From Candidatus Stahliibacteriota bacterium (GTDB taxonomy: Bacteria; Hydrothermota; UBA3072): DNA of 52,030 nt. The translations under genes and the position numbers were made by a program. The stretch covers positions 1-52,030 of the forward strand of contig SOIB01000066.1 in NCBI GenBank assembly GCA_004377355.1, given 5' to 3'. Under the pieces are notes generated by a model, which saw nothing but the letters and a program-made list of their open reading frames with translations, made no database searches and was not told where the DNA came from. Each line of letters starts with the position of its first letter. Within the stretch, counting starts at the first letter, position 1. This document shows, piece after piece, positions 30,990-48,573 of this stretch.

Positions 30990-31016
30990 TAACAAAAAAT
31001 GGAGTTTATTATAATA

Positions 31017-31090
31017 GGGCGGATAGCTCAGATGGTCAGAGCGCCGGTCTCACATACCGGAGGTCAGAGGTTCAACTCCTCTTTCGCCCA
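31017..31090 (+). tRNA. tRNA-Val (CAC)
   Basis: GGGCGGA/TTCGCCC acceptor stem, CCGGT-CTCACAT-ACCGG anticodon arm, AGAGG-TTCAACT-CCTCT T-arm; CCA not encoded. Confidence 0.93.
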
Positions 31091-31116
31091 AAAGTGCACG
31101 AGAGTGCACTTTTTTT
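31090..31116 (+). terminator. intrinsic terminator after the tRNAs
   Basis: AAAAGTGCAC-GAGA-GTGCACTTTT plus T-tract. Confidence 0.85.
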
Positions 31117-31132
31117 ATATTCTGGAGGATAT

Positions 31133-31849: not shown

Positions 31850-32247
31850 TCAAAATCTATACCGATGGATCTAGTCGTGGCAATCCAGGTCCTGCAGGAA
31901 TTGGTATTTTAATAATAGATGATAAAGGTAATGAGGTTAAAAGAATATCTGAATATATAGGTGAAACGACAAATAATATCGCTGAATACAGTGCACTCCT
32001 ACGAGCAGTTATTGAATGTGAAAAAAGAAAAATATATTCAGTTGAATTCTTCACAGATAGCGAGTTGTTGGTAAATCAACTCAACAAAGTATATAAGATT
32101 AAAAATGAAGGATTAAAGCCCTTATATGTAAAATTGTTGAGTAAGCTAATGAATTTTAGGGATTGGAGTATTAAACATATTCCAAGGGAAGAAAACAAAA
32201 TAGCTGATTTCCTTGCAAATCAGGCACTTGATAAAAAAAGTCGGTGA
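31837..32247 (+). CDS. rnhA: ribonuclease HI
   Basis: YTDGSSRGNPGPAG, TNNIAEY, TDSELLV, HIPREENKIADFLAN. Confidence 0.93.
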   Translation: MDRVIKIYTDGSSRGNPGPAGIGILIIDDKGNEVKRISEYIGETTNNIAEYSALLRAVIECEKRKIYSVEFFTDSELLVNQLNKVYKIKNEGLKPLYVKLLSKLMNFRDWSIKHIPREENKIADFLANQALDKKSR

Positions 32248-32264
32248 TTTAAAATCAGCGACTT
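32237..32264 (+). terminator. hairpin terminator overlapping the rnhA stop
   Basis: AAAGTCGGTGATTT / AAATCAGCGACTTT, one mismatch. Confidence 0.65.
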
Positions 32265-32503
32265 TAATTGAATATAAAATATTTTAATAAATTATTCTCC
32301 TAAATTTTCTATTTATCTTAAAAATACCTGGAATGGTATTGAAAACATCAATCACATAATTTACTATTCACTGATATTAGGTACTTAATTTTCAAAAATA
32401 CACTTTACTACCTTTTTTAAATGGTTATCGCTTAAGATATACTTACCAACATCCTATTAAATAATTAGATTTTTCTCTTAAACTTACCATCCTAATTTCA
32501 CAC

Positions 32504-32532
32504 TTGACTTATTGATATATCATTTATATATT
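32504..32532 (+). promoter_or_regulatory. sigma70 promoter heading the accB...recX operon
   Basis: TTGACT-17 nt-TATATT. Confidence 0.65.
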
Positions 32533-32558
32533 TTACAAAAGGAAAATGGGGGAACAAT

Positions 32559-33035
32559 ATGAAAATAAGCTTTATTAAGCAGTTGATTAATATCGTGGAA
32601 ATGAGCAATATTTGTGAAATTGAGATAACAAGATTTTTTACAAAGATTAGGATTTCTAAAACTTCCCTAAGAGAAACAAATGAAGAATTAATTTCTATAT
32701 CAAAAAAAACCAATAGAGAATCTGGAAAGTCAGTAAAGATTGAAGAAGTAAAAAAAGAAAAAAAGAAAGAGAAAAAGAAAGAAAAGGAGGACAATATCCA
32801 TACTATTACTTCACCAATGGTTGGAACTTTCTATATAGCTCCAGCCCCTGATGCACCTCCATATATTGAAACCGGGGATCGTATCAAGAAGGGTGATGTA
32901 GTGTGTATAATTGAAGCTATGAAAATAATGAATGAGATTGAGTCTGATGTGTCTGGTGAAGTTGTTGATGTTTTAGTAACCAACGAAGAACCCGTGGAAT
33001 ATAATCAGGAATTATTCATTATAAGGAAAACTTAA
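32559..33035 (+). CDS. accB: acetyl-CoA carboxylase biotin carboxyl carrier protein
   Basis: SPMVGTFY, IIEAMKIMNEI biotinylation motif. Confidence 0.96.
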   Translation: MKISFIKQLINIVEMSNICEIEITRFFTKIRISKTSLRETNEELISISKKTNRESGKSVKIEEVKKEKKKEKKKEKEDNIHTITSPMVGTFYIAPAPDAPPYIETGDRIKKGDVVCIIEAMKIMNEIESDVSGEVVDVLVTNEEPVEYNQELFIIRKT

Positions 33036-33038
33036 AGA

Positions 33039-34121
33039 ATGGATTTACGAGAAGTAATAAATAAAATGATTGAAGCCGATGCATCGGACCTTCATTTAAA
33101 GGTTGCCATTCCTCCTACAATAAGAATAAATGGGGAACTTTCTCCTTTAAAAATGGACCCTTTAAACAAGGAGGAACTCCGTCGTGCTGCTTCCTCTCTA
33201 ATGACCAAAGAACAACAAAACCGATTTGTTGAAGAAAAAGAAGCTGATTTTGGTATAGGAATTCCAGGGCTCGCTAGATTCCGCGTTAACATCTATATTC
33301 AGAGAGGAACTATTGCCATTGCAATTAGACCGATACCCAAAGATATAAAAACCACTGAAGAACTCAATCTTCCTTCTATACTTGAAGATCTGGCTCTCAC
33401 TGTAAGGGGGCTTATCCTTATAACAGGAACCACCGGGTCAGGAAAATCAACAGCTTTGGCATCAATGATAGAGCACATTAACAAGAATAAAAGAAAACAT
33501 ATAATAACCATAGAGGACCCTATTGAATTTCTTTTCACAGACAGACAATCAACTATCTCTCAAAGAGAAATTGGAACCGACACAAAGAGCTTTTCTTCAT
33601 CACTTAGGTACGTCCTGCGTCAGGATCCAGATATTATTATGATAGGAGAGATAAGAGATATCGAAACAATGGAAGTGGCTTTGAAAGCCGCTGACACAGG
33701 ACATCTTATATTCTCTACCCTTCATACTTTAAATGCTTCAGAGACTGTAAACAGAATTATTAGTTTCTTCCCTCCCTATCAGCATCTACACATTAGAATA
33801 TTACTGGCAAGCGTATTAAAAGGTATCATTTCACTTAGACTTCTTCCGAGAAAGGATGGCACTGGAAGGATCCCCGCCACGGAAATTCTCGTATCTACTC
33901 CAACAATAAGGGAGTACCTGCTGGATGAAATAAAAACAATGTTGATACCTGAAGCAGTTAGTGATGGTCAACAGTACAATATGCACTCATTCGATCAAAA
34001 TATTATGTCACTATATAAGGACGGTATTATAGATCTCCAAACCGCCCTGGATAATTCAACTAATCCTGACGAATTTAAAATGAGATTGAGGGGCATTGAG
34101 CAATCTTCAGCCCGATGGTAA
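33039..34121 (+). CDS. pilT: type IV pilus retraction ATPase (PilT/PilU family)
   Basis: ASDLHL, RFRVNIY, TGTTGSGKST, TIEDPIE, LRQDPDIIMIGEIRD, TGHLIFSTLHT. Confidence 0.9.
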   Translation: MDLREVINKMIEADASDLHLKVAIPPTIRINGELSPLKMDPLNKEELRRAASSLMTKEQQNRFVEEKEADFGIGIPGLARFRVNIYIQRGTIAIAIRPIPKDIKTTEELNLPSILEDLALTVRGLILITGTTGSGKSTALASMIEHINKNKRKHIITIEDPIEFLFTDRQSTISQREIGTDTKSFSSSLRYVLRQDPDIIMIGEIRDIETMEVALKAADTGHLIFSTLHTLNASETVNRIISFFPPYQHLHIRILLASVLKGIISLRLLPRKDGTGRIPATEILVSTPTIREYLLDEIKTMLIPEAVSDGQQYNMHSFDQNIMSLYKDGIIDLQTALDNSTNPDEFKMRLRGIEQSSARW

Positions 34122-34124
34122 GAA

Positions 34125-35465
34125 ATGGAAAAGATCCTTATAGCCAACAGAGGAGAAATAGCACTGAGGGTAATACGGGCTGCAAAGGATCAAGATATCA
34201 AAACTGTAGCAATTTTCTCAGAAGTAGATAGTGATTCTCTTCATGTTAGATTTGCAGACGAATCTGTCTGTATTGGAGGTTCCTCACCAGAGGAAAGTTA
34301 TCTTAATATACCAAGAATCATAGCAGCAGCAGAAATAACCGGAGCAGACGCAATCCATCCTGGATATGGATTTCTTGCTGAAAATCCCTCATTTGCTGAA
34401 GCCTGCGAAGATAATAACTTTATTTTCATTGGTCCAACATCAGAGATTATTAAAAAAATGGGAGATAAAGTAGAAGCAAGAAAAGTAATGAAAAAAGCAA
34501 ATGTTCCGGTAACACCGGGAAGTAATGGTGTTGTAGCAAATATTGATGAAGCACTAAAAATCGCTCTGAAAATAAAGTACCCGGTAATCATAAAAGCTGC
34601 AAGTGGCGGAGGGGGAAGGGGACTACGAATTGCAGGAAACGAACTTGAACTTAAAACCGGATTTGTAATGGCAAAATCGGAAGCTCAGGCTGCATTTGGA
34701 GATAATAGGTTATATATAGAGAAATACCTACTAAATCCACGCCATATAGAAATCCAAATATTATCAGATTCTCACGGCAATGTAGTACATTTAGGAGAAA
34801 GAGAATGTTCAATACAAAGAAGGCATCAGAAATTGGTAGAAGAAGCTCCCTCAACTGCTATCGATAAGAAACTTAGGGAAAGAATGGGAAAAGCTGCAAT
34901 TTCCGGGACCCAGCAATTGGGTTACACATCTGCCGGGACCTTTGAGTTTTTAGTTACTAAAGATGGTGATTTCTATTTCATGGAAATGAATACAAGGATC
35001 CAGGTAGAACATACAGTAACTGAAGAAGTAACAGGCGTTGACATTGTATCCGAACAGATCAAAATTGCTCAAGGGAACTGTATATCTGTACACAAGCAGG
35101 ACCAAATCCATTTAGAGGGACATGCAATAGAGGTCCGAATCAATGCTGAAGACCATACAAGGGGTTTTATCCCCAAACCTGGTACAATAAACGCTCTACA
35201 CTTCCCCGGGGGTCCAGGTATACGAATAGATAGTCATATATACCAGGGATACACCATACCCCCCAATTATGATTCACTCCTCCTTAAACTGGTCTCCTAT
35301 GGAATTGATAGAGAGCAAAGTCGAAAAAGGTTACTCAGAGCATTAGACGAATTTGTCATTCGTGGAGTTCCAACTACTATACCATTATACAAAGAAATAC
35401 TCACCCATCCTGATTTTATCAATGGAAAGATAAGTACAAATTTTATAGAAAATCTTGAATATTGA
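34125..35465 (+). CDS. accC: acetyl-CoA carboxylase biotin carboxylase
   Basis: ANRGEIA, HPGYGFLAEN, GGGGRG, ERECSIQRRHQK, EMNTRIQVEH. Confidence 0.97.
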   Translation: MEKILIANRGEIALRVIRAAKDQDIKTVAIFSEVDSDSLHVRFADESVCIGGSSPEESYLNIPRIIAAAEITGADAIHPGYGFLAENPSFAEACEDNNFIFIGPTSEIIKKMGDKVEARKVMKKANVPVTPGSNGVVANIDEALKIALKIKYPVIIKAASGGGGRGLRIAGNELELKTGFVMAKSEAQAAFGDNRLYIEKYLLNPRHIEIQILSDSHGNVVHLGERECSIQRRHQKLVEEAPSTAIDKKLRERMGKAAISGTQQLGYTSAGTFEFLVTKDGDFYFMEMNTRIQVEHTVTEEVTGVDIVSEQIKIAQGNCISVHKQDQIHLEGHAIEVRINAEDHTRGFIPKPGTINALHFPGGPGIRIDSHIYQGYTIPPNYDSLLLKLVSYGIDREQSRKRLLRALDEFVIRGVPTTIPLYKEILTHPDFINGKISTNFIENLEY

Positions 35466-36075
35466 CTTTAGTATAATTGGGGTAACAGAGAGAAGGTACT
35501 GTGGAGATAGGGTAGTTGAAAGTGTTAGAGCAGCAGCAAAAGGAGGAATACGGACAATACAACTCCGGGAAAAAGGACTTTCGGATATTGATTTTTTTAA
35601 AACGGCTTTCACCTTAACAAAATTAAAAGAAGAAATGGATATAAATATTTTCATCAATGATCGTTATGACATCGCCGAAGCTGCATCCTGCGATGGAGTT
35701 CATCTTGGAAATGAAGATTTACCGTTATACGCTGTTAGAAAATTTTACAAAGGCTGCATTGGGAAAACTGTAAAAAGTAAAGATGAGGCAATAAAAGCGC
35801 AAACTGAAGGGGCTGATTACATCGCGATTGGTCCTTTCTATAATTCCAACACAAAACCCCAAAAGATATTATTGCAAAAAGATATTTTACCGGAAATTAA
35901 AGATGCTATATCAATACCTATTATAGTAATTGGTGGTATTACTCCTCTGAATGCTTCTATACTTTTTGAAATGGGAGCAGATGGAATAGCTGTATCTGAA
36001 TCCCTCTTCAAGGGAAATGTAGTAAAAAATGCAAAAAAACTAATTGATGTGACGAGTAAATATGGCGGTAATTAA
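35455..36075 (+). CDS. thiE: thiamine-phosphate synthase
   Basis: QLREK, INDRYD, GVHLG.ED, DYIAIGP...TK, IGGI. Confidence 0.88.
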   Translation: MNIDFSIIGVTERRYCGDRVVESVRAAAKGGIRTIQLREKGLSDIDFFKTAFTLTKLKEEMDINIFINDRYDIAEAASCDGVHLGNEDLPLYAVRKFYKGCIGKTVKSKDEAIKAQTEGADYIAIGPFYNSNTKPQKILLQKDILPEIKDAISIPIIVIGGITPLNASILFEMGADGIAVSESLFKGNVVKNAKKLIDVTSKYGGN

Positions 36076-36658
36076 GTTTGCATCTCGTGAGGTAATATGC
36101 AAAATAGTATATTACGGACCCGGACGTTCTGGGAAGACAACCAGTATAAAATATTTATATTCCCGTATACCGAATAATAGAAAATCAGATATGATTTCAC
36201 TTGCAACTAAAGAGGATAGAACCCTATTTTTTGACTTCCTACCTTTGGAATTAGGAAATTTCAAAGGTTTTAAGGCAAGACTCCAAATTTATACGGTTCC
36301 AGGGCAGGTAATCTATGACTCTACGAGGAAACTGGTCTTACGTGGTGCAGATGGAGTTGTATTTGTTGCAGATTCTCAAGAAGAAAGATTCGATGATAAC
36401 AGATGGAGCTGGGAAAATATGATGGAAAACCTTGAAGAAAGCAGTATAGTTATAGGTGATTTACCAATTGTATTTGAATATAATAAGCGTGACTTAGAGC
36501 ACATAACCCCAATTGAAAAACTTGACACTCAACTAAATTTTGATGATTGTCCTTTCTTTCCCACAATTGCAACACAAGGAAAAGGAGTCATTCCAGCATT
36601 TAAAACTATTGGAGTATTGGTTTTAAAAAGAATTAAAGATCGTCTAGGAGAAAAATAG
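36062..36658 (+). CDS. mglA: MglA-family small GTPase
   Basis: KIVYYGPGRSGKTT, DRTLFFDFLP, YTVPGQV, RKLVLRGADGVVFVADSQ, NKRDL. Confidence 0.93.
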   Translation: MAVIKFASREVICKIVYYGPGRSGKTTSIKYLYSRIPNNRKSDMISLATKEDRTLFFDFLPLELGNFKGFKARLQIYTVPGQVIYDSTRKLVLRGADGVVFVADSQEERFDDNRWSWENMMENLEESSIVIGDLPIVFEYNKRDLEHITPIEKLDTQLNFDDCPFFPTIATQGKGVIPAFKTIGVLVLKRIKDRLGEK

Positions 36659-37797
36659 TGTCTGAAATAATATTTGGAAACTTCAATGCTGAAGCAATAA
36701 AAGCAATAAAAAAATCTCTAAAGTCAAAGGAAATCAATCCCCTCTACATTCATGGACCTTATGGTTCAGGGAAATCCTTCCTTGTCCAAAAAATGGAAGA
36801 AGAATATAAAGGTAAATCCATAACTATTGAAGCAACAAAATTTGAACCATCCCTTATAAATGAGTATCTCGATTATGATTTATTTATACTATCAGATTTA
36901 GAACTTCTCCCTCTAAGATCCCCAATTCCAGAAACTATTTTTGATATCCTGAGTTACTATATTGAGAAAAAGAAACAGATTGTATTCACATCAGACAGAC
37001 CACCCTACGCTCTTAAGCTCTCAGAAAGGATTATATCAAGAATTGAGCGCGGTGTAACTGTCAAAATTAAACCATTTGATAAAACCTCAAGAGAAAAAGT
37101 AATAAAGACACTTTGTAAAGACCTGCCACCAAAAATTATAAATAATCTTATAGACGAAGATATCGAGACAATTAGTCAGGCAATTGGAGCAATAAAAAAG
37201 GCAAGGGTCCTGGGTTATGTAGTTAAAAGGAAAGAAGAGAGAGAAAAAACAAAACAATTATTGTCAAAGAAAACAATGGGAGAATTTGATAATTTTGTAA
37301 ATGATATCAGAGAAACTTTTTCTGAAACAATTGATAGATCCGCAAAAGAGCACAAACTTCGTGAGGAATACAGTTCAAAGATGTATGTCTGGAAGATGAA
37401 GGGATTCAACACTGATTGTATAAAAAAAGTTATAGATGGGCCTATTGATAAGCTAACAAGTGAGTTTGTATCATTTACTATGGATATACAACGACTTATT
37501 GAACTACAGAGGCAATATGGTGTGGTTAATATAAAGAATTTATTAAATATGGGAATCCTCTCAAAAGAAGAGATTAAAGACATAGAAAAAGCGCTATTTA
37601 ATCCAGATAAAACAGATTGGTTAAGCATAAGAATAAGTGAACTTGAAAACCAGGAAGAGGAACTTCTTAAAAAGCCCACTGAGGTTGAAATTAAAGAAGC
37701 TAAAAAGGAAACATCGAGTGTCAATATTGATAAGCTAACAGAGGAACTTAAAATAGATTTAAACGCCAATAGTTTCCGGTTTCTAAAAGAATTTTAA
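36658..37797 (+). CDS. DnaA/Hda-like AAA+ domain protein lacking the DnaA DNA-binding domain
   Basis: NPLYIHGPYGSGKSFL, QIVFTSDRPP, LSERIISRIERG; unrelated helical C-terminus. Confidence 0.75.
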   Translation: MSEIIFGNFNAEAIKAIKKSLKSKEINPLYIHGPYGSGKSFLVQKMEEEYKGKSITIEATKFEPSLINEYLDYDLFILSDLELLPLRSPIPETIFDILSYYIEKKKQIVFTSDRPPYALKLSERIISRIERGVTVKIKPFDKTSREKVIKTLCKDLPPKIINNLIDEDIETISQAIGAIKKARVLGYVVKRKEEREKTKQLLSKKTMGEFDNFVNDIRETFSETIDRSAKEHKLREEYSSKMYVWKMKGFNTDCIKKVIDGPIDKLTSEFVSFTMDIQRLIELQRQYGVVNIKNLLNMGILSKEEIKDIEKALFNPDKTDWLSIRISELENQEEELLKKPTEVEIKEAKKETSSVNIDKLTEELKIDLNANSFRFLKEF

Positions 37798-37798
37798 A

Positions 37799-39397
37799 AT
37801 GTCAATTAAAGGTTCACTAAATGATATTTCTATAGCTGATATATTGCAGATGCTCTCACTCGGTAATAAAACTGGTGAACTTTCAATAATTAAAGAGGAA
37901 AATCTTGTGCATCTATATGTAGAATCAGGAATACTAAAAGGTGTGCTCTGGATGAATAGAGCCAATAAATTGGGCAAAATACTCGTTGAAAAGGGATATA
38001 TTGACGATGAAACCCTTAATAAGGTCCTCTCATTCCAGGAAACCCAACCTGAAATCCCTCTTGGGGAATTGTTGCTAGACTTAGATCTTATAGATGAAGA
38101 AACCATTGTTAAAAATATAAAAAAACAAACAAGGGATACGATAATTGAGTTATCTGAATGGGATAGTGGGCAGTTTGTGTTTGAAAGCGGAATAGAATCA
38201 AAAATTAAAGGCGTTCCAGTTTCAATAAAAATAGATGATTTACTTCTTGAATCCGCTGCCCTTCAGGACGAGTTAAAAGCCTCCTCCCTACTGGATAAGG
38301 AGAGTATTCTGATTAGAGCTCAAATTCCTGATTCTGAACTTTCTCTTGATGAAAACGAAATGAAGGTGCTTGAAAAGATTGATGGTAATAGGTCACTTTA
38401 TACAATTTTGACATCACTACCTTTGGATGAATTTGGAGTACTCCAGATAATATCTAAATTATTAGATGAAGGAATTATTAAAAAAATTGAGCTGGATAAA
38501 GAAACTTTAGAAAAAGCAAAATTAAAAAGTCACGAACATAGAAATTTGGGAGTCGCTTTTCTGCATATAGGAATGTATGAAGAAGCTTTGAGAGAATTCA
38601 ACCATATCCTTGGACTTGAACCAGATGACAAAGAAGCCCTATTCTACAAGGGTATAATAGTATATGAATCGGGAGATACCAAAGAGGCAAAAGAAATTTT
38701 TGATTCAATCCCATTTGGAGATGAAAACGCTGCTGTACTAAATAACCTTTCAGTAATTATGGGACTTGAAGGAGACCTGAATAACGCAATAAAATATATA
38801 GAGAAAGCAAAAGCTATAGAGGGAGAAAACCCAGTAATTTCACTAAATAAGGCTATCCTTTTAATTAAACAGAACAAACTGGAGGAAGCAAAGAAAATTA
38901 TTGAAAACATAGAGCAAAAAACTTCTTTCACTCAATTTTATTATTCTTACGTTTTAACCAAGCTTGGTAATTTAGAAGAAGCTCTATCGGAGCTTAAAGG
39001 TGGTCTTAATATGGATCCTAAGTTTGGAGAGTATTACTTTAATTTAGGAAAAATTTATGAAGCTATGAATGATGAAAAGAAAGCAGAAGAAGTGTATAAA
39101 AAGGGATTAAAAGTTGATAGCAGTTCAATCATCTTATCAAAGGCTTTAATTTCGTTTTACTACCGTAATAAAACATTTGATGTGTGTGAAAGAAAAATTG
39201 ATTCATTAATATCATCTGGCGTTGAAGATTGGGACCTCTATTTCAAAAAGGGTAATATACTGTTCCAAAAGGGAAAAGGAAAGGAAGCTATAGACACATG
39301 GGAAAAAGCTCTCAAACTAAATCCGGATAACGAAACAATAAAAAGTACTATTGAAACAGCAAAAGAACATGAAAAGAAATCAAGATCAGGATTTTAA
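37799..39397 (+). CDS. DUF4388 + MshEN-like + TPR protein
   Basis: KGSLNDISIADILQML...KTGEL (DUF4388); KLGKILVEKGYI....L...L..Q; multiple C-terminal TPRs. Confidence 0.82.
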   Translation: MSIKGSLNDISIADILQMLSLGNKTGELSIIKEENLVHLYVESGILKGVLWMNRANKLGKILVEKGYIDDETLNKVLSFQETQPEIPLGELLLDLDLIDEETIVKNIKKQTRDTIIELSEWDSGQFVFESGIESKIKGVPVSIKIDDLLLESAALQDELKASSLLDKESILIRAQIPDSELSLDENEMKVLEKIDGNRSLYTILTSLPLDEFGVLQIISKLLDEGIIKKIELDKETLEKAKLKSHEHRNLGVAFLHIGMYEEALREFNHILGLEPDDKEALFYKGIIVYESGDTKEAKEIFDSIPFGDENAAVLNNLSVIMGLEGDLNNAIKYIEKAKAIEGENPVISLNKAILLIKQNKLEEAKKIIENIEQKTSFTQFYYSYVLTKLGNLEEALSELKGGLNMDPKFGEYYFNLGKIYEAMNDEKKAEEVYKKGLKVDSSSIILSKALISFYYRNKTFDVCERKIDSLISSGVEDWDLYFKKGNILFQKGKGKEAIDTWEKALKLNPDNETIKSTIETAKEHEKKSRSGF

Positions 39398-40142
39398 ACG
39401 CATTGTTAGTATAATTAATAAGGTAACGGATTTTAATCTAGACCATTATAAAATAAAGCCACTACGAAGAAGAATTCACTCTCGTATGAGGCGTCTGGGT
39501 ATTGACAATTATGAGGATTATACGAATTATCTGGCAACAAACAAAGACGAGGTAACAATCCTTGAAGAAGCTCTCACAATAAATCTTACCCGATTTTTTA
39601 GAAATAAAGCAGTGTTTGAATATATAAAAGATGAAATACTTCCATCTTTAAATAATCCCTCAATATGGAGTGCTGGTTGTGCCAGTGGTGCAGAACCTTT
39701 TACACTTGCAATCCTTTGCCATGAACAAAATTTGAATTGTTCAATAGTCGGCACAGATATTGACACAGAATCCATTAAAAAGGCTAGAGAAGGTATCTAT
39801 GACATTTTTTCCATGAAAGAAGTAGAACCGGATATTCAGAAGAAATATTTCAAGAAGGTTGGGAAGAATTATAAAATAATAGACAAAATCAAAGAAAGAG
39901 TCAAATTTCAGCAGTTAGACCTTAAAGACATTAGCTTTGAAAGTGGGTTTGATTTAATTATATGTAGAAATGTCTTAATTTATTTATCAAGAGAATTCCA
40001 GGAGCAAACGTTATTATGTTTTCATAAGGCACTTAAACCCGGGGGTTACCTTATTCTCGGAAAGGTAGAGTCCCTGGTTGGGCAGGCAAAAGAACTCTTT
40101 AACCCTCTTAATCTAAAAAACAGGATTTATGATAAAAGGTAA
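39369..40142 (+). CDS. cheR: chemotaxis methyltransferase
   Basis: TINLTRFFR, WSAGCASGAEP, FDLIICRNVLIY, PGGYLILG. Confidence 0.95.
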   Translation: MKRNQDQDFKRIVSIINKVTDFNLDHYKIKPLRRRIHSRMRRLGIDNYEDYTNYLATNKDEVTILEEALTINLTRFFRNKAVFEYIKDEILPSLNNPSIWSAGCASGAEPFTLAILCHEQNLNCSIVGTDIDTESIKKAREGIYDIFSMKEVEPDIQKKYFKKVGKNYKIIDKIKERVKFQQLDLKDISFESGFDLIICRNVLIYLSREFQEQTLLCFHKALKPGGYLILGKVESLVGQAKELFNPLNLKNRIYDKR

Positions 40143-40611
40143 TAAAATAATAGTAAAAACCGGAGAATATTCAGTTTCGGATAATTGCAATGTACTAATA
40201 ACACATGGATTAGGTTCATGTGTCGCTGTTACTATTCACGATGAAGAAAATAAAATTGGAGGGATGCTACATTACTTACTACCTGAAAGCCCTAATAAAG
40301 AGAAAAAATCTAAATATGCAGATACAGGTTTAGATTTACTTCTTGCAAGATTATTGGAGTTAGGCGCTAATAGAGAAAAATTAAAAGCAAAATTATTTGG
40401 TGGTGCAATGATGTTTGGTGATTTTATAAAGGATAAGAGTAAATCAGTTGGAGGCAGAAACATTAAAAAGGCTCGTGAAGTCCTGGGAGGTTATGGTATC
40501 CCTATAATAGGAGAAGACGTAGGAGGTAACTATGGTCGCTCAGTTGAATTTGATATAGCAACTGGAATAGCAAAAATAAATTCCTATATAAAAAGAGAGA
40601 AATCAATTTGA
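40129..40611 (+). CDS. cheD: chemoreceptor glutamine deamidase
   Basis: GLGSCVAV, GGMLHYLLP, AKLFGGA, EDVGGNYGR. Confidence 0.95.
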   Translation: MIKGNKIIVKTGEYSVSDNCNVLITHGLGSCVAVTIHDEENKIGGMLHYLLPESPNKEKKSKYADTGLDLLLARLLELGANREKLKAKLFGGAMMFGDFIKDKSKSVGGRNIKKAREVLGGYGIPIIGEDVGGNYGRSVEFDIATGIAKINSYIKREKSI

Positions 40612-41627
40612 TAGATGTTCTAGTTGTTGATGATTCAGCATTCATGAGGAAAGTTTTAACTGATATCCTGAATGAAGATCCTGCAATAAATGTAATTGAG
40701 ACAGCATCTAATGGAAATGAAGCAATAGAGAAAACCGCACTACTCCGACCAGACGTAATTACAATGGATGTTGAAATGCCTGGAATTAATGGAATTAAGA
40801 CAGTAAGGCGTATAATGAAGGATTATCCTACTCCTATTATAATGGTCTCAGCTTATACAAAAGAGGGAGCCGAAAAAACTATAAAAGCTCTGGAAGCGGG
40901 TGCAATAGATTTTGTTGAAAAACCAGGTGGAACTATATCCTTAAAGATAAGAGAAGTAAAACAGGATATCTTAAAAAAAGTAAAAATAGCAAAAAAGGCA
41001 AATATACCATATACAAAGAAAGAAGCAGGTTTGATAAAGAAACCAATACATAAATTGAAGATGAAAACATTAATTATAATTGCTGCTTCCATAGGAGGTC
41101 CACAAGCCATCTATCTTCTCTTATCACAACTCCCCAGAAATTTTCCTTCTTCAATAATTGTCGTTCAACATATGCCAAAGGGATTCACTGGCGCATTCGC
41201 AAAAAGATTAAATCAAAATTGTAAGATTAAAGTAAAAGAAGCAAAAGATGGAGATATTTTGAAAGACGGAGAGGTCTTAATTGCACCTGGAGATTTTCAC
41301 CTTGAGCTAAATAATAGCAACGAGATCAAACTAAACAAAAAACCTCCCTTTCATGGCATCCGTCCATCAGCAGACATAACAATGAACTCTGCTTCAGATG
41401 CCTTTGATGGTAATATAATTGGAGTTGTCCTTTCTGGGATGGGGAAGGATGGAGCAATTGGTGTAAGGAAAATAAAACGTAAAGGAGGTATAATTATAGC
41501 TCAAGATAGAGAAACCTCTGTAGTTCATGGAATGCCAAAAGCAGCTCTTGAAACAGGATTTGTAGATCATATTCTACCACTATCCAAGATAACAGGTAAA
41601 CTTACGGAGATAGTAAACAATGTTTGA
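40608..41627 (+). CDS. cheB: chemotaxis response regulator methylesterase
   Basis: Receiver domain VVDDSAFMR...MDVEMP; ASIGGP, QHMP, SGMGKDG, HGMP. Confidence 0.95.
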   Translation: MIDVLVVDDSAFMRKVLTDILNEDPAINVIETASNGNEAIEKTALLRPDVITMDVEMPGINGIKTVRRIMKDYPTPIIMVSAYTKEGAEKTIKALEAGAIDFVEKPGGTISLKIREVKQDILKKVKIAKKANIPYTKKEAGLIKKPIHKLKMKTLIIIAASIGGPQAIYLLLSQLPRNFPSSIIVVQHMPKGFTGAFAKRLNQNCKIKVKEAKDGDILKDGEVLIAPGDFHLELNNSNEIKLNKKPPFHGIRPSADITMNSASDAFDGNIIGVVLSGMGKDGAIGVRKIKRKGGIIIAQDRETSVVHGMPKAALETGFVDHILPLSKITGKLTEIVNNV

Positions 41628-42420
41628 AAAAATAAAACAGCGACTAAATGAGATAGAAGACAAGTCATATAAAGAGGAAGATATAAAAGAAGAACTTGAA
41701 AAAATACTTAAGACTATCATTCAAGTAAAAAGAGAAATAACAGAGCTTGAAGAGAAAACCAAATCTTTATTAGAACAAGGTGGTAGTGATAACGAAAAAG
41801 ATGAAGGTCAAGGAGATATGACAGGTTTTATAAGTGGAATTCAATCCGCTCGTGTAAATGTGGAAACACTTTTGGATAGAGGGTGGAATTACATCGTATC
41901 TGGAAAATATAAAGAAGCTATTAAGGAACTATTACGTGCAAAGCAAATGGACCAAAGAAATGTACAGATATTCAATCTTATTGGATGGGCTTATATAAAA
42001 ATGGAACAATATGATAAAGCTAACTCAACCTTTCAGGATGCACTGAGAGTAGATGGGGAGAATGAGATGGCTCATACAAATATGGGGTTTTTAAAATACA
42101 AGAAAGGACAATACGCTGAAGCACTTAAAAGTTTATCAAATATTTCTGAAAATGCCAAGAATAAACAGGCAGTATTATATGCATTATTTTATCTTGGATT
42201 GATCTACTATGAGAGAGAAATGTTTAATGATGCAATAGAATTACTTAATGAAGCAATAACTCAAGGACCAAATCTTTATGAGGCGTATTACTATCTGGGT
42301 ATGGCTTATAAAAAACGAGGCTTAAATAACATGGCTACTCAAATATGGAAGAGATTAATCGATATAAATCAATACAATATATGGGCTAAAAAAGCAGTGG
42401 AAGCTCTGGATGGTCAATAA
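41620..42420 (+). CDS. coiled-coil + TPR protein
   Basis: N-terminal coiled coil followed by about five TPR motifs. Confidence 0.8.
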   Translation: MFEKIKQRLNEIEDKSYKEEDIKEELEKILKTIIQVKREITELEEKTKSLLEQGGSDNEKDEGQGDMTGFISGIQSARVNVETLLDRGWNYIVSGKYKEAIKELLRAKQMDQRNVQIFNLIGWAYIKMEQYDKANSTFQDALRVDGENEMAHTNMGFLKYKKGQYAEALKSLSNISENAKNKQAVLYALFYLGLIYYEREMFNDAIELLNEAITQGPNLYEAYYYLGMAYKKRGLNNMATQIWKRLIDINQYNIWAKKAVEALDGQ

Positions 42421-42458
42421 ATACAAGAGTTAACAAATACAAAGAGTTGAAATTATAA

Positions 42459-42989
42459 ATGTCCAAAAAGAACAATTCCCATCACGTTCAAAAAAGTGAG
42501 AGTAAGGAAAAGGGGGAAGCGAACAGGAAGAAAGAAGATATCCCAATTATTCCACAGCAAGAGATGATTATTATTCGAGAAGGAGAGGAATTCTATGGCA
42601 TCCTCCTTGATTATGTAGATGAAATAAAAAGAGATATAACTTTAACTGAAGCACCTAATCTTGGTGAGTTTGTATCTGGTATAACTGAAATAATGGGTAA
42701 CATGGTTCCAGTTATTAATTTCTCTAACCTTATAGGTCTAAAAACAAAGGGAGGAAGAAAAACACCGGTATTAATTGTTAAGATCTCCAATCAAATTATT
42801 GGTCTACAAGTCGATGAAGTAATAGAAATTGTAGAAATAAATAAGGAGGAAATATTATCTCTCCCTGATATATTTCCTCCAATGATACTCTCTGGTGCAT
42901 ATGATTATAATAATAAGGTAGTAGGTATACTGAGGTTAGAAGGTTTGATAAAAGGAAAACATATTCATTCACTTAAGGATTTAAAATGA
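42459..42989 (+). CDS. cheW: chemotaxis coupling protein CheW
   Basis: YGILL..VDEI, GITEIMGNMVPVIN, IGLQVDEVIEI. Confidence 0.85.
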   Translation: MSKKNNSHHVQKSESKEKGEANRKKEDIPIIPQQEMIIIREGEEFYGILLDYVDEIKRDITLTEAPNLGEFVSGITEIMGNMVPVINFSNLIGLKTKGGRKTPVLIVKISNQIIGLQVDEVIEIVEINKEEILSLPDIFPPMILSGAYDYNNKVVGILRLEGLIKGKHIHSLKDLK

Positions 42990-44686
42990 GTATTAATTAT
43001 GAAGAAAAAAATAAGTTAATTTATAGATATTTAATAATAACTATTTTACCAAAGATAATATTCGGGATTCCAATACTACTCATCGCCTTTCGTTTTTTTA
43101 CAGGCTTTCATCATAATCAAAAATTCTATTTTACCATAATTTTAACAATTATTTTTCTTGAGATTGCATATTATATAATACATTCACTACGCCTAAAAAA
43201 ATTTCTAAATTTAAATGATTCGGATTCTTTATATAAGACACCAATATATACAGCTTTTCATACAGGTCTTAATTTCATTTTTTTCGCACCAATTATATTT
43301 TTGCTTTTAAATCATTCCCAGAAGATTGTAACCATAGGTGAGTTACTTAAAGGAGTCTGGCATATTATTCCTGTTGGAATTATTGAATTTTGTTATGTTT
43401 ACTGCTTAGGTTATTTAATTTTTACTCCACTTTATAAAACCTTTGAAGGGGTAAAATTCAAAGGATTATCTTTAACGGAAAAATTCTTAGTAATCATCGT
43501 TCCTATGCTACTTTTCTCGTTCTATAATGGTTACATCTTGAGTAAATCCTGGGTAGGTTACATTTACTTTCTGCTATATATATTCCCTATTTACGCTCTA
43601 ATCAGATTTATAAAGGAGCCTATATATTCACTTGCTGAAGGATTTGATAAAATCCTTTCTGGTAACTACAATCTATCCATAAATGTATCAGTTGTATCAG
43701 GTGATGAGCTACAAGTACTTAAAGATAAATTCCAGAGTATTCTCATGTTAATATCCAATATTGTTAGTCATATAAAGGAATCCGCATCAGAAGTTAAAAA
43801 GCTAGCAGAAAATATTTCTACTGGTACTAAAAAGCTAAGCACCTATAATGAGGATATCTGTAATTCATTAGAGGGGATAAACTCAAAATCACATAATATC
43901 AGAGCTTATGTCGAATTAATAAAGCGATATATTGAAAATCTATCTTTAACATCAAAAGAATTTGCATCCCAGACGCAAATTCTAAATAACATTACAAATA
44001 AATCTGTTAATTTAGCAAACACAGGGGAAGAGATAAGCGAAGAAGCAGTCAATATGATACAGAGAGGTGCTCTAAAAGTAAAAGAGTCTACCAAGAATCT
44101 TGAATTTCTGATTAAAAGTTTTAAGGAAGTTAAAGGATTCTCCTCAATGATGGGAGCAATATCCAATGATACAAATCTTCTTGCACTTAATGCATCTGTT
44201 GAAGCAGCAAGAGTAGGAGAGGGGAGTGAAGGCTTTAATGTAATAGCTGAAGAGATTAGAAAACTGTCCAATGACTCTGCAAAATACCTGGAAAAAATGA
44301 CAGAGAATATAAAAGAGATGAATAATGCAGTCCTATTATTCAGAGTTAACACCGAAGAGAATGAAAACATATCTCTAGAGATTAAGGAAAAAGTGGAAAA
44401 GACTAAAACGACACTTGCCGATGTCTCTGAATCAATCGCAATGACAATGAATCTAGTGGATCAGACCCCGGGAATCATAAGTGATGTATCAGATTCAATA
44501 AACGAAATAAAAGAGGCAGTTATCCTCGTAACCGAAACAACAGAAAAGCAGATAGCCAACACAGAAGATATCTCGATAATAACAGAAAAGCAAATCAAAA
44601 CGATGGATGTAACGGAAAAAGTTGCACAGAATCTTTTCAAATTAAGCGAAGAAATGATAAAAGGAATTGAACACTACAATGAATAA
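42986..44686 (+). CDS. methyl-accepting chemotaxis protein with polytopic membrane N-terminus
   Basis: Several TM helices, HAMP-like region (SGDEL), TNLLALNASVEAAR..E...GF.VIAEEIRKLS. Confidence 0.9.
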   Translation: MSINYEEKNKLIYRYLIITILPKIIFGIPILLIAFRFFTGFHHNQKFYFTIILTIIFLEIAYYIIHSLRLKKFLNLNDSDSLYKTPIYTAFHTGLNFIFFAPIIFLLLNHSQKIVTIGELLKGVWHIIPVGIIEFCYVYCLGYLIFTPLYKTFEGVKFKGLSLTEKFLVIIVPMLLFSFYNGYILSKSWVGYIYFLLYIFPIYALIRFIKEPIYSLAEGFDKILSGNYNLSINVSVVSGDELQVLKDKFQSILMLISNIVSHIKESASEVKKLAENISTGTKKLSTYNEDICNSLEGINSKSHNIRAYVELIKRYIENLSLTSKEFASQTQILNNITNKSVNLANTGEEISEEAVNMIQRGALKVKESTKNLEFLIKSFKEVKGFSSMMGAISNDTNLLALNASVEAARVGEGSEGFNVIAEEIRKLSNDSAKYLEKMTENIKEMNNAVLLFRVNTEENENISLEIKEKVEKTKTTLADVSESIAMTMNLVDQTPGIISDVSDSINEIKEAVILVTETTEKQIANTEDISIITEKQIKTMDVTEKVAQNLFKLSEEMIKGIEHYNE

Positions 44687-45110
44687 GAGTATTGTATTCT
44701 CATTAGCTGAAATATTTTTTGGCATTCCAATAAATCAAATTAAGAGACTTGGAAAACCAGAGAATATAGAACCCCTAAAAGGAGCACCCGATTGGATTAG
44801 TGGCTTTATGTCATATAGAGATAGTATGTTGCCATATATAACACTCTGGAATATCCTTAAAATCCATCCACCTTCTAAGGAATTTTTACTATTACCTTCT
44901 AATTTTGATTATTGTGCATTTGGAATTTCCAAAATAAATGGTATATTCGAGATTGAGATAAAAGAGAAAAATAGTAATATCTTTAAGATTCCATACATCA
45001 TGGGATTTGGAGAATTTCATGAAAGAGTTGTTATATTTGTCGATCTTAACAATTTTCTCTCACCAGAACAAAAGAATATTGTGGGGAACTTTTATAAGAA
45101 AAATGAATAA
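44679..45110 (+). CDS. cheW: second, divergent CheW-like protein
   Basis: FGIPINQI, PLKGAPDWISGFMSYRDSMLP, VVIFVDL. Confidence 0.7.
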   Translation: MNKSIVFSLAEIFFGIPINQIKRLGKPENIEPLKGAPDWISGFMSYRDSMLPYITLWNILKIHPPSKEFLLLPSNFDYCAFGISKINGIFEIEIKEKNSNIFKIPYIMGFGEFHERVVIFVDLNNFLSPEQKNIVGNFYKKNE

Positions 45111-45549
45111 AAATAACATTCCTTTCTGGAGGAAATTCTTAGGTAGTTTTTTCTTTATAGGTAAAATAAAGGGTGGAGGAACTTACACCTCGATTATCGC
45201 AGGATTCCTTTTTTATTATTTTTTGGATTGGAATTCGGTATTATATTCAGGAATAGCTGTAGGTATCATTATTCTGGCAATTATTCTCTCATACGACCTA
45301 AAAAAAGATTTTTCCTGGTTTACTCTTGACGAACTTGCTGGAACAGCCCTAACTTTTGCTTTCCATACAAAAACTATCCCTACTCTTGTAATAGGATTAA
45401 TAGTCTTCAGGATTTTCGACATTTTCAAACTACCCTTTATCAAACGATTAGAGAGAGTTAAAACAGGAATTGTTCTCGATGATATAATTGCAGGTTTAAT
45501 TGCAAATGGATTCCTCTGGATTGTGAGATATTTATGGATACTTCGATAA
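45103..45549 (+). CDS. pgpA: phosphatidylglycerophosphatase A
   Basis: GGGTYTS, LDELAG, FRIFDIFK, GIVLDDIIAG. Confidence 0.85.
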   Translation: MNKNNIPFWRKFLGSFFFIGKIKGGGTYTSIIAGFLFYYFLDWNSVLYSGIAVGIIILAIILSYDLKKDFSWFTLDELAGTALTFAFHTKTIPTLVIGLIVFRIFDIFKLPFIKRLERVKTGIVLDDIIAGLIANGFLWIVRYLWILR

Positions 45550-46034
45550 AAAGTGAAGGAGAAAGATTAGCAAAAGATATAGGAACTCTTTTAAGAGAAA
45601 AAGGGTTAACTCTATCAATTGCTGAATCATGCACTGGAGGATTAGTAAGCAATTTGATTACTTCTATCCCGGGAAGTTCAGCCTATTTCCAAGGAGGTAT
45701 AATCGCTTATTCTAATAGAATTAAAAAAGAATTATTGAGGGTTCCTGAGGAGACTTTAAAAAAGTTTGGAGCAGTTTCTGAGGAGGTTGCAAAAAGTATG
45801 GCTAATAGTATAAGAGAGTTAATGAAAACTGACATTGGAATCTCCACTACCGGGATTGCTGGTCCTGGCGGTGGAAGCGAGAGAAAACCTGTAGGAATGG
45901 TAATCTTTGGAGTTGACATTAAGGGAAAAATAACTACTAATATAGAGTACTACAAGCCATCACGTAAACGGATAAAGATGCAGGCTGCAACTGATCTGCT
46001 GAAAATTTTAAAGGATAATCTAAATAAGGATTAG
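45534..46034 (+). CDS. pncC: CinA/PncC nicotinamide-nucleotide amidohydrolase
   Basis: AESCTGGLV, PGSSAYF, GAVS..VA..MA, TGIAGPGGGS..KPVG. Confidence 0.92.
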   Translation: MDTSIKSEGERLAKDIGTLLREKGLTLSIAESCTGGLVSNLITSIPGSSAYFQGGIIAYSNRIKKELLRVPEETLKKFGAVSEEVAKSMANSIRELMKTDIGISTTGIAGPGGGSERKPVGMVIFGVDIKGKITTNIEYYKPSRKRIKMQAATDLLKILKDNLNKD

Positions 46035-46035
46035 C

Positions 46036-46569
46036 ATGAGAATATTTACTGCTATTGAAATACCTGTAGAAGCAAAAATATCTATCAAGGAGATTATAAA
46101 TAATATTAACACAGAAGCTATCTTAAAATGGGTTACGAAGGAAAATCTTCATATAACTCTTAAATTCATTGGGGAAATAGACTCACCCGATCCAATAGAG
46201 AATGTTTTGAATGATGTTAGCAAGGATTTTCAACCCTTCAAGATATCCCTTTCCGGGCTTGGGGCTTTCCCCTCAAAAAATAGGATTAAAGTTTTATGGG
46301 TTGGAGTAGATGAAGGTAAAAACCAATTGAAGGAATTATATAAAAATATTGAAAAAAGGATTATTCAATTTGGGTTTAAAAAGGAAGAAAAGGATTTTAC
46401 CCCTCATGTGACTATAGGAAGAGTAAAGAAAGGATTACTTAAATTTCCGAATATCGACTTTTTCTACCCTCCGTTTCTTGCAAGAAAGATAACATTGTTT
46501 GAGAGTATACTAACACCTTCCGGGCCAATATACAAAATTTTGTACAGTTTTCCAGAAGACACAGATTGA
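46036..46569 (+). CDS. thpR: RNA 2',3'-cyclic phosphodiesterase (2H family)
   Basis: Two HxT motifs (HITLKF, HVTIGR), GAFP, ESILTPSGPIY. Confidence 0.92.
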   Translation: MRIFTAIEIPVEAKISIKEIINNINTEAILKWVTKENLHITLKFIGEIDSPDPIENVLNDVSKDFQPFKISLSGLGAFPSKNRIKVLWVGVDEGKNQLKELYKNIEKRIIQFGFKKEEKDFTPHVTIGRVKKGLLKFPNIDFFYPPFLARKITLFESILTPSGPIYKILYSFPEDTD

Positions 46570-47540
46570 ATATGAACCCACCATTTGCATATTTCTTCTC
46601 AATACTAATACTTCTTTTTGTTACTGCTTCTATAAAAAGGTCTCGAATAATTGACTATTTTGGAGATAAAATTTTGAGTAATAACAATGAGAGATTTGCA
46701 ACTATCTTATTGGTAATCTTATCTTATATACTATCTCCGCTTTTCCTTTCCTTTGTTCTTTTCTCATCCTTTGATAAATGGCTTCTAAGGTTCAGAAATA
46801 AATCCAGGATAAGTGTATTGCTACTCACTTCAACTTTACTTGGTGGAATTATTCTACCTTTTGGTAATATGAGAAATGTTTATATTACAATATTTTATGG
46901 AGGAGGTAGCCCAGGTATACTACTATCAGATTTTGTTAGAGTTATGTTCCCACTGTGGATTGCGGGTCTTATTATCTTACTTATATACTCATATTTTTCT
47001 ACAGTAAAGGATGAAATAAAACAAAAGAAAACAAAGACTAAATGGAGATGGAAGGAACTTGTGTTTTCGTTAATACTTTTAATTTTCATAATTGCTTATT
47101 TTAACGGAAAAATGAGTTCATTAGGATTTCTCTTTATCACTGGAGCGTTCTCCTTCGCCTTTATAAGCATGGAAACACTAAAGCAGGTTGATTGGTGGGT
47201 GCTTATTCCTGCTGGTTTTGTCTTCGTTTTCTATTATCTATTAAACAACATAGATATCACTTTAAATGTATGGACAGGATTCTTCACTGGTAGTATATGT
47301 TCTCTTTTCTTATCATCCAACATATTATCTTACATTCTACCATTCTCCGGCATGGAAAGCCGATTTCTACTATACGCTATATCGGTTGGGGGATTGGGAG
47401 GAATTCTCGGAACCGCTGAAAGCATATTTATGTGGAGAAAAGGCAGGGTTGAACTAGATTGGAAGTTAATGCTCCGGATATACGGAATATGCCTCTTGGT
47501 TGCTTTATTAATACTAGTTTTAGGAGGTTTTTATGGATAA
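46566..47540 (+). CDS. polytopic membrane protein, degenerate ArsB/NhaD/CitM-like permease
   Basis: About ten TM helices; [13 protein letters not shown] and VDW motifs. Confidence 0.55.
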
Positions 47541-48573
47541 TGAAAAAAAGAAAGCGCTCGACTCCGTAATGAAACAGATTCAAAAACAATATGGGGATTG
47601 GGCGGTTATGAAACTGGGAAGTAAGAAAAGAGCAGATGTTCCCACAATTCCAACAGGTTCAATTTCTCTTGACCATGCTCTTGGTATTGGAGGAATACCC
47701 AGGGGCAGGGCAATTGAAATTTTCGGACAAGAAGCTTCTGGAAAGACCACTATTGCCCTTCATATTGCAGTAGAAGCACAAAAAAAAGGCGGAACAGTAG
47801 CATTTATCGATGTTGAACATGCTCTCGACCCTAAATACGCAGAGCAACTTGGTGTGAATATAGAGGATCTTCTTATATCTCAACCCGATACAGGGGAAGA
47901 GGCTCTCGAAATAGCAGAGATGTTAGTAAGAAGTGGTGCAGTCGACCTTATCATAGTAGACTCAGTTGCAGCGCTTGTTCCAAAGGCTGAAATAGAAGGA
48001 GAAATGGGGGATTCTCATATTGCACTCCGTGCACGCCTCATGTCACAAGCACTAAGGAAATTATCCGGTGTTATGAGTAAATCCTCTACCTCTGCAATTT
48101 TCGTCAATCAGGTTCGATATAAGATAGGTATTCAGTTTGGCAATCCCCTGACAACTCCTGGAGGTCTTGCATTGAAATTCCATACAACTATCAGGATGGA
48201 GATAAGAAATATAGGTGCAATTAAAAGGGAAACAGAATCTGTTGGTATGAGAGCAAAGATAAAAATTGTCAAGAATAAGCTTGCACCTCCTTTTAAAGAG
48301 GCTGAATTTGATATAATGTATGGAGTTGGAATATCAAAGGAAGGGGAATTAATTGATCTAGGTCAATCCCTAGGATTTGTTGAAAGGTCAGGCGCCTGGT
48401 ATAATTACGGAGATGTGAGTCTTGGTCAGGGACGTGAAAATGCAAAAGAATTCCTCAAAGAGAATCCCGAGATAAGTGATGACCTCGAGAGAAAAATAAG
48501 AGAAAAACTTAATATATCAGATGAGCAAGATAACAAGGATAGAGGAGCAGAAGAAGAAAAAGAACAGAGTTAA
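47533..48573 (+). CDS. recA: recombinase A
   Basis: [44 protein letters not shown]. Confidence 0.98.

Follow-up and report, generated by a model that had tools for sequence, protein, structure and literature searches.

A chemosensory gene cluster with mglA and a DnaA-like ATPase gene in a Candidatus Stahliibacteriota genome whose cheA lies at a second locus

Gene content of the cluster and of the locus with the kinase gene

The 52,030-nucleotide stretch of DNA analysed here (the window) is contig C123 of its source genome, which totals 1.81 Mb in 211 contigs and is rated 95% complete. At 36062-45110 on the + strand it contains a string of ten genes in which the GTPase gene mglA, a gene for a DnaA-like ATPase and a gene for a PATAN (DUF4388)-tetratricopeptide repeat (TPR) protein are joined to chemotaxis (che) genes. 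The list of open reading frames (ORFs) and matches in Pfam and the PDB bear out all ten, under the names and in the order given to them in an earlier reading made by a model from the letters alone (the sequence-only reading). The tight coupling which that reading described is also seen in the ORF coordinates, with neighbouring genes overlapping or spaced by no more than 38 nucleotides throughout and a 1-nucleotide overlap between the stop of mglA and the start of the ATPase gene. The features, together with the pilT gene upstream, are as follows.

33039..34121, + strand: pilT, a PilT/PilU-family type IVa pilus retraction ATPase (Pfam T2SSE 3.1e-44; NCBIfam pilT_fam 2.3e-133, above cutoff)
36062..36658, + strand: che-linked MglA paralog of 198 amino acids (PDB MglA matches; weak Roc/Ras Pfam hits)
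36658..37797, + strand: DnaA-domain-III-like AAA+ ATPase (Pfam Bac_DnaA 8.4e-16)
37333..37710, + strand: helical middle domain of the ATPase, the sole part that is invariant across the family
37799..39397, + strand: PATAN (DUF4388)-TPR protein (Pfam DUF4388 3.7e-26 at residues 4-159; TPR at about 240-520)
37967..38128, + strand: MshEN-like tandem motif in the PATAN domain, residues 57-110 (NCBIfam NF053729)
39351..40142, + strand: cheR methyltransferase (Pfam CheR 2.8e-51)
40129..40611, + strand: cheD (Pfam CheD 1.6e-30)
40608..41627, + strand: cheB, REC plus methylesterase (Pfam CheB_methylest 1.6e-66, Response_reg 1.4e-25)
41620..42420, + strand: TPR protein of 266 amino acids (Pfam TPR families; an ortholog follows cheB in relatives)
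42459..42989, + strand: cheW (Pfam CheW 8.3e-21)
42986..44686, + strand: methyl-accepting chemotaxis protein (MCP; Pfam MCPsignal 7.4e-23 at residues 349-516)
44667..45110, + strand: second cheW (Pfam CheW 2.2e-15)

No gene for CheA, for a stand-alone CheY or for a Roadblock protein lies within the window. The genome's sole match to the CheA dimerisation domain is found on another contig, C128, where the che genes identified with Pfam form one co-directional row, whose products are given here in two parts.

C128, first part of the row: MCP/SBP_bac_5 fusion (1051 amino acids), CheW, CheY, CheA, CheC/CheX
C128, rest of the row: TPR protein (877 amino acids), PATAN protein (336 amino acids), TPR-Roadblock protein, Roadblock protein (110 amino acids), Roadblock protein (159 amino acids), TamB

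When the whole genome was searched with tblastn, CheR, CheD and CheB gave matches in the window only, each as a single copy (matches to CheB elsewhere are at the level of its REC domain only), and CheA and CheC gave matches on C128 only, again each as a single copy. The CheY query also matched REC domains on seven other contigs besides that of the window's CheB, and its full-identity match, which is the sole stand-alone CheY found beside che genes, lies next to cheA on C128 only. A complete set of CheA, CheW, MCP, CheY, CheR and CheB is present at the level of the genome only, over both loci. As CheR, CheD and CheB are confined to the window and CheA and CheC to C128, one complete pathway is split over two loci: the window has the half for reception, adaptation and output of the only chemosensory pathway in this WOR-3/TA06-type bacterium, and the kinase half is on C128. 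The sequence-only reading had described the cluster as lacking CheA, CheY and MglB, with the proviso that CheA could be encoded elsewhere. The absence of all three from the window stands, as does the proviso, but the genome does not lack them, with cheA, cheY and a Roadblock-type MglB paralog together on C128 and a further mglB-mglA pair on contig C183. The genome search for these proteins, proposed in that reading as its own refuting test, thus went against an arrangement without them and points to a split system.

The split does not arise from the assembly. It falls at the junctions thiE/mglA in the window and MglB paralog/tamB on C128, and an assembly gap was considered as its cause and rejected, because both junctions lie inside contigs and recur in relatives. 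The thiE/mglA junction is moreover bridged by contigs of three other sequencing runs, one contig of 13,865 letters spanning 35323-47000, so that the arrangement in the window cannot be put down to assembly. DNA nearly identical to 36062-45110 occurs in metagenomes of 12 studies (one of which may be the source of the window), and the labels of these metagenomes are marine sediment, cold seep, hydrothermal vent, subsurface and seawater.

The MCP encoded in the window has a hydrophobic multi-helix region in its N-terminal part (about residues 12-209, by Kyte-Doolittle hydropathy) and a C-terminal signalling domain. It is one of four MCP genes held by the genome. In the 1051-amino-acid fusion on C128 (L010 4430-7585) the MCP signalling domain is N-terminal and SBP_bac_5 is C-terminal, and neither a membrane segment nor a signal peptide was predicted for this protein; its gene is conserved, and is the divergent neighbour of accB in Cloacimonadota-labelled loci and in genome G026. 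The kinase cluster directly adjoins dnaA-dnaN on the opposite strand (L010 1717-4296), the presumed origin region, and does likewise in genome G004; the true dnaA of the genome is thus on C128. Three more PATAN (DUF4388) genes lie outside both che loci, at C128:41530-42003, C8:7244-7543 and C13:2850-3113.

Around the ten genes of the window the co-directional string continues, with thiE overlapping mglA upstream and pgpA, cinA and ligT downstream. The pilT gene, which had been placed just upstream, is indeed upstream but is not adjacent: it is flanked by accB and accC and separated from mglA by 1.9 kb, in which thiE lies as well. Of the 58 related loci described below, 24 share this odd placement between accB and accC (window 32559-35465). 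Two tRNA genes at 30916-31090 lie just 5' of the long + strand gene string, and the 56% GC at the window end is due to a 23S rRNA gene on the - strand (49824-52030), which is truncated by that end. A scan of 30500-49800 for promoters and terminators was uninformative, giving 77 promoter-like and 13 terminator-like sites compared with 74.1 and 10.5 in shuffled sequences.

Conservation of the two loci across lineages

A search with an alignment of the ATPase, restricted to one genome per species, found 58 loci, the ORFs of which were labelled by BLASTP against the proteins of the window, C128 and C183. Most of these loci carry the label WOR-3 or TA06; four are labelled Cloacimonadota, one each Candidatus Stahlbacteria, UBP2 and Gemmatimonadetes, and a few bear other labels. 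In 42 loci the gene directly upstream of the ATPase gene is mglA, and in 8 it is a Roadblock gene; two others have a large TPR gene there and one has accC, in two nothing was recognised, and three end at a contig edge. Directly downstream the PATAN-TPR gene is found in 54 loci, no recognised gene in 3 and a contig edge in 1, and cheR is found downstream in 51 of the 58. The linkage between mglA and the che genes, for which the sequence-only reading had proposed a neighbourhood analysis, is thus conserved, and it is found in relatives at the level of family, order, class and phylum.

Gene order is also kept at both loci. The order accB-pilT-accC-(thiE)-mglA-...-cheW-pgpA is found in the order- and class-level relatives examined and varies in the three phylum-level ones, and the order of the C128 type is kept in all seven relatives fetched, one of them with a shorter variant and one without the TamB neighbour. 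Four loci, L062, L076, L081 and L082, have cheA in the same stretch as the ATPase gene, in the following arrangements.

L062 (confirmed with Pfam): cheY-cheA-cheC-TPR-PATAN-TPR/Roadblock-Roadblock-MglB paralog-ATPase-PATAN/TPR-cheR-cheD-cheB
L081 and L082: cheA-cheC-TPR-PATAN-TPR/Roadblock-Roadblock-mglB-mglA-ATPase-PATAN/TPR-cheR-cheD-cheB-TPR-cheW-MCP
L076: MCP/SBP-cheW-cheY-cheA-cheC-TPR-ATPase-PATAN/TPR-cheRDB

The window and C128 loci belong to a single conserved supercluster, which other lineages keep in one piece and which is broken between the MglB paralog and mglA in the lineage of the window. A CheA query matched 26 of 31 related genomes, 24 of them once and two of them twice (in one case a single gene interrupted by TAG), and CheA and the ATPase occur together in 25 of the 31. 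In the loci examined the ATPase family is restricted to the context of the supercluster.

The GTPase, the ATPase and the PATAN-TPR protein

The window MglA matches solved MglA structures over residues 1-193 (Thermus, E 1.7e-63; Myxococcus, about 2e-60). It contains the motifs GPGRSGKT, DRTLFF, TVPGQ and NKRD, which we take to be the P-loop, the intrinsic Arg finger, the Thr-for-Asp G3 motif with the catalytic Gln (TxxGQ) and the NKxD motif. Residues G19, G21, G24, K25, T26, T78 and Q82 are invariant in an alignment of 40 MglA sequences, and R53 is at least 90% conserved. Because the catalytic positions are kept in the che-linked MglA line, the GTPase should cycle and should need a GTPase-activating protein (GAP). 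The obvious candidate for this GAP would be the 159-amino-acid MglB paralog encoded on C128, a Roadblock protein that matches solved MglB (5.8e-12) and is 29% identical to canonical MglB. A Roadblock gene of this C128 type directly precedes the ATPase gene in L062, L073, L074 and L080, and the MglB paralog adjoins the che-linked mglA or the ATPase gene in L062, L073, L074 and L080-L083.

On the window's own contig there is no Roadblock gene. The available text of PMC4316618 defines a coupled mglA as one with mglB within four genes, and the window mglA has no mglB at that distance. The canonical mglB-mglA pair of this genome follows ruvC-ruvA-ruvB on C183 (1.3e-32 for its MglB against PDB MglB, 3.2e-79 for its MglA against PDB MglA), and the window MglA is 49% identical to the canonical MglA of this pair. 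Possession of more than one MglA is common among the 31 related genomes, at least two genes being found in 24, one in 5 and none in 2. Copies of the canonical type (68-92% identical to the C183 protein) have mglB directly upstream in 14 of the 14 fetched, and the MglAs of che clusters are 48-60% identical to the canonical copy. A maximum-likelihood tree of 65 rows places the window MglA in a clade of 38, all of them che-cluster MglAs without an adjacent mglB; the support for this clade, an ultrafast bootstrap of 90 and a Shimodaira-Hasegawa-like approximate likelihood ratio test (SH-aLRT) value of 82, is below the star threshold. In this tree the MglAs from the che clusters of L081-L083, whose clusters include an mglB of their own, group separately, and those of L073, L074 and L080 nest with the canonical-type group.

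The ATPase matches PDB chains of DnaA domain III (1.2e-13). An AlphaFold2 model of the protein, with a predicted local distance difference test score (pLDDT) of 80.8, consists of a confident AAA+ part (residues 1-190), a disordered stretch (193-225) and a set of helices (226-351). Foldseek with the N-terminal part of this model finds DnaA (1l8q, 1.3e-14), and with the whole model it gives AAA+ matches only, with no separate fold assignment for the helical domain. Pfam gives no match to Bac_DnaA_C (domain IV) or to DnaA_N (domain I) in this protein, and the NCBIfam scores are far under cutoff for both DnaA (75.9 compared with 343.9) and Hda (55.9 compared with 194.8). In most relatives the ATPase is a protein of 550-890 amino acids, with two DnaA-type AAA+ domains, a helical domain of about 100 residues between them and an acidic tail. 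The proteins of the window's family have 379-397 amino acids and have lost the second AAA+ domain, and in the L084-L093 group the first AAA+ domain is not recognisable.

All seven invariant columns in an alignment of 53 ATPase sequences (W245, M247, K248, F250, L280, F314 and P316) fall in the helical domain. For the nucleotide-binding part we assume motif names by analogy with DnaA: the window ATPase has an intact Walker A motif (GPYGSGKS) and the sequence SRIERG, presumably the box VII Arg region, and it has S-D at the Walker B position and Ser in place of the sensor-2 Arg of its relatives. This set of motifs suggests that it may bind ATP but hydrolyse it poorly. The helical domain is matched by 76 cluster representatives out of 1.84 billion at E<=0.001, about half of which are members of this ATPase family. 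The domain is one copy of a unit of about 105 residues, and the remaining representatives are large proteins, of 600-1600 amino acids, in which this unit is repeated 5-10 times in tandem. Among these tandem-unit proteins, a DUF835 domain stands at the N terminus of one and a zinc ribbon at the C terminus of another (P0005, P0018). The ESM Atlas gave sub-threshold leads only (0.82) for the helical domain, to archaeal hypothetical proteins of Thermoplasmatota. A second ATPase paralog of 607-609 amino acids, with two AAA+ domains, is encoded away from the che cluster in one genus (L053 10001-11830, L054 1948-3771), and the same stretch of L053 holds a PilT-like ORF of 518 amino acids.

In the PATAN-TPR protein, residues 57-110 match the NCBIfam model NF053729, 'MshE-related c-di-GMP-binding domain' (c-di-GMP being cyclic di-GMP), with 41.1 bits against a cutoff of 38. 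MshEN is described as a tandem 24-residue motif in the available text of PMC5013675, and the first copy in the window protein fits the relaxed pattern published there; the tandem motif is recognisable across 35 PATAN-TPR orthologs. An AlphaFold2 model of residues 1-170 (pLDDT 87.8) has a four-helix insert, which superposes on MshE with c-di-GMP (5htl) with a root mean square deviation of 1.3 Å over 56 columns at 27% identity (Foldseek E 0.15). The best consistent Foldseek matches for the insert are the c-di-GMP-binding N-domains of MshE and of Thermus PilF, and 8pdk superposes too. With nine GGDEF-domain genes encoded in the genome, a c-di-GMP input to this putative MshEN insert is plausible. 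The C-terminal part of the protein consists of TPR repeats, and Pfam gives no Response_reg match in it.

A proposed route to type IV pili, its rivals and known systems

Pilus genes are present in the genome, with two PilB-like genes, several PilT-like genes and one PilC gene; a REC-domain ORF (C31:22028-22378) lies about 1.5 kb past the pilC of the pilus cluster. Across the 58 loci, pilT is found within 2.6 kb upstream of the ATPase gene in 37, in 13 of which it stands directly before mglA. The sequence-only reading had seen no flagellar genes in the window, and this extends to the genome, in which neither FliG_C nor FHIPEP was found at 95% completeness, and to the 31 related genomes, none of which has FliG_C. 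As stated in the available texts of PMC7519303 and PMC3441718, MglA, MglB and TPR effectors govern pilus polarity in Myxococcus. In Synechocystis, according to the parts available of bioRxiv 10.1101/2021.06.11.447907 and PMC10519157, PATAN regulators bind PilB1, and the former adds that MglA/MglB homologs are regularly encoded near PATAN proteins.

Together these observations are best read as a Frz-like system, formed by both halves, in which Che controls the polarity of type IV pili through MglA/MglB, a reading to which we give a probability of about 0.7. The most economical account is probably that a Che pathway directs type IV pili via a dedicated MglA/MglB switch, and the proposal made from the sequence, a chemosensory-to-GTPase polarity switch for pili that would act via TPR and ATPase adaptors, still appears the best. 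Under this account, the sensing array would be made up of the MCPs, three CheW proteins and CheA, with adaptation and phosphatase activity provided by CheR, CheB and CheD from the window and by CheC/X from C128. Phosphorylated CheY would act on the dedicated MglA/MglB pair, either directly or via the Roadblock, PATAN and TPR proteins, and the GTP state of MglA would then set the active pole or the active type IV pilus motor (PilB/PilT). This step would resemble the action of Frz on MglA/MglB in Myxococcus and that of PATAN regulators on PilB1 in Synechocystis. A further input, from c-di-GMP, may enter by way of the MshEN-like insert of the PATAN-TPR protein; the DnaA-derived AAA+ protein could be an ATP-dependent scaffold or switch that partners PATAN-TPR. 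Of all this, the gene content, the split, the complementarity of the halves and their conservation are established from the sequences, whereas the route of the signal, the pilus target and the parts played by the ATPase and by c-di-GMP are inferred.

A bolder version of this account is tentative, and we think it more doubtful than probable: that the supercluster, widespread in WOR-3/TA06 and neighbouring candidate lineages and so far undescribed, hard-wires a complete Che pathway to its own MglA/MglB by way of PATAN, Roadblock and TPR proteins and the DnaA-derived AAA+ protein, that the helical domain of the ATPase is a new interaction module, that an ATP-dependent oligomeric switch of the DnaA type was co-opted from replication initiation for the control of pilus polarity and that c-di-GMP is read by the MshEN insert of the PATAN domain.

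Several points weigh against the polarity system for pili or against parts of it. The housekeeping genes accB, accC, thiE, pgpA, cinA and ligT lie in the same co-directional string, so that lying side by side in this genome does not prove that genes have a common function. The 58 loci are not independent, many coming from one family, and counts from such related genomes therefore overstate the independent support. No mglA is present in the examined stretch of six loci (L062, L075, L076, L079, L094 and L095), and a phylum-level relative, G028, has thiE, an 885-amino-acid ATPase, PATAN-TPR and TPR (L029 2430-8105) with no adjacent che genes and no match to the CheA query in its genome, which means that the trio of ATPase, PATAN-TPR and TPR can exist without Che. 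In the kinase, the CheA of C128, Pfam finds Hpt, P2, dimerisation, HATPase_c and CheW domains but no REC domain, and the CheA of L062 is likewise without REC. Hybrid CheA-REC kinases are typical of ChpA in Pil-Chp and of FrzE in Frz, and a gene set with CheC and CheD, both of which are present here, is typical of flagellar-class systems. No RNA run is among the sequencing runs that match the locus. As for c-di-GMP, Foldseek with the PATAN model gave no match at E<=0.001, and the second copy of the motif deviates at position 10, with Asp where the pattern in the available text of PMC5013675 allows Gly, Ala or Ser.

The features of the kinase also bear on the alternative that fares best, in which the split Che system is real and its target is not pili but cell polarity or division, adhesion or biofilm formation, or the positioning of receptor arrays by the ATPase. 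Both the architecture of CheA and the CheC/CheD set are unlike those of Pil-Chp or Frz kinases, and an ATPase derived from DnaA would fit a positioning or scaffolding role, given that ParC and PpfA-type ATPases position chemoreceptor arrays and that DnaA oligomerises on ATP. We nevertheless regard such a target as unlikely, as pilT is a conserved neighbour that directly adjoins mglA in 13 of the 58 loci, no flagellar marker (FliG_C, FHIPEP) was found, and MglA, MglB and PATAN proteins are all documented as regulators of pilus polarity in the available texts of PMC7519303, bioRxiv 10.1101/2021.06.11.447907 and PMC10519157.

It is distinctly improbable that mglA, the ATPase gene and PATAN/TPR form an independent pilus-polarity module that lies beside the che genes with no flow of signal between them. 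The arrangement in G028 and the unrelated housekeeping genes in the string would fit such a module, yet across rearrangements in which the housekeeping neighbours vary, ATPase-PATAN/TPR keeps its link to cheR-cheD-cheB (51 of the 58 loci have cheR downstream), cheA is joined as well in four loci, and CheA and the ATPase are found together in 25 of the 31 genomes. Least credible is a self-contained module that feeds MglA directly, which would account for the absence of the CheA, CheY and MglB genes from the window, because the one CheA of the genome is on C128 with CheY, CheW, CheC/X and three Roadblock genes, C128 lacks exactly the CheR, CheD and CheB that the window has, and both gene sets are contiguous in L062, L076, L081 and L082.

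We found no published description of mglA or of a DnaA-like ATPase inside che clusters, although the orphan-MglA tables of PMC4316618 may list such genes, and none of pilus chemotaxis in WOR-3 or of this WOR-3 system; in its available text PMC4316618 counts 59 orphan MglA genes and does not analyse them. The logic of Che, MglA and pilus is already known, and it is the hard-wired supercluster and its DnaA-derived component that are apparently undescribed. What the supercluster offers is one conserved neighbourhood, in uncultured marine-sediment bacteria, that brings together kinase, response regulator, phosphatase, adaptation enzymes, GTPase, GAP-like Roadblock proteins, PATAN/TPR adaptors and a DnaA-like ATPase, and with it specific candidates for proteins that interact with MglA and with PATAN proteins. 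Attention is drawn as well to a DnaA-derived ATPase family confined to this context in the loci examined, and the supercluster suggests that Che-to-GTPase control of pili may be of earlier origin and wider distribution than the myxobacterial example indicates.

Among known systems, the Frz pathway of Myxococcus xanthus is likewise a Che pathway that is combined with MglA, with TPR proteins and with a Roadblock GAP of the MglB type, and its host, too, has type IV pili. Cytoplasmic MCPs occur in both, represented here by the MCP/SBP_bac_5 fusion without a predicted membrane segment. According to the available text of PMC4316618, Frz is genetically linked to MglA through RomR, and the Myxococcus mglA does not lie near the genes of its response-regulator partners, RomR among them; the Che and MglA genes here form a supercluster or two conserved halves. 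Further differences from Frz are the CheA without a REC fusion and the extra parts, namely two PATAN proteins, two further Roadblock proteins and the DnaA-like AAA+ ATPase. With the cyanobacterial Tax/Pix systems the supercluster shares a PATAN (DUF4388) protein in a che cluster and an association with type IV pilus motility (as far as described in the available text of bioRxiv 10.1101/2021.06.11.447907). However, PATAN is fused to TPR here and to REC in the PatA-type regulators, it carries an MshEN-like insert here, and Tax/Pix is not described with MglA/MglB or a DnaA-like ATPase in that text. The likeness of the ATPase to DnaA and Hda resides in residues 1-190, which match domain III in both sequence and fold; unlike them it is without the N-terminal domain and the DNA-binding C-terminal domain, carries a helical domain specific to its family and, in most relatives, has tandem AAA+ domains. 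Finally, the insert resembles the MshEN of MshE/PilF-type ATPases in that a tandem motif is recognisable in it and that the four helices predicted for it can be superposed on 5htl and 8pdk, but it is set within a PATAN domain rather than at the N terminus of a secretion ATPase, and it has a spacer of 6 residues instead of 5 and Asp at position 10 of the second motif.

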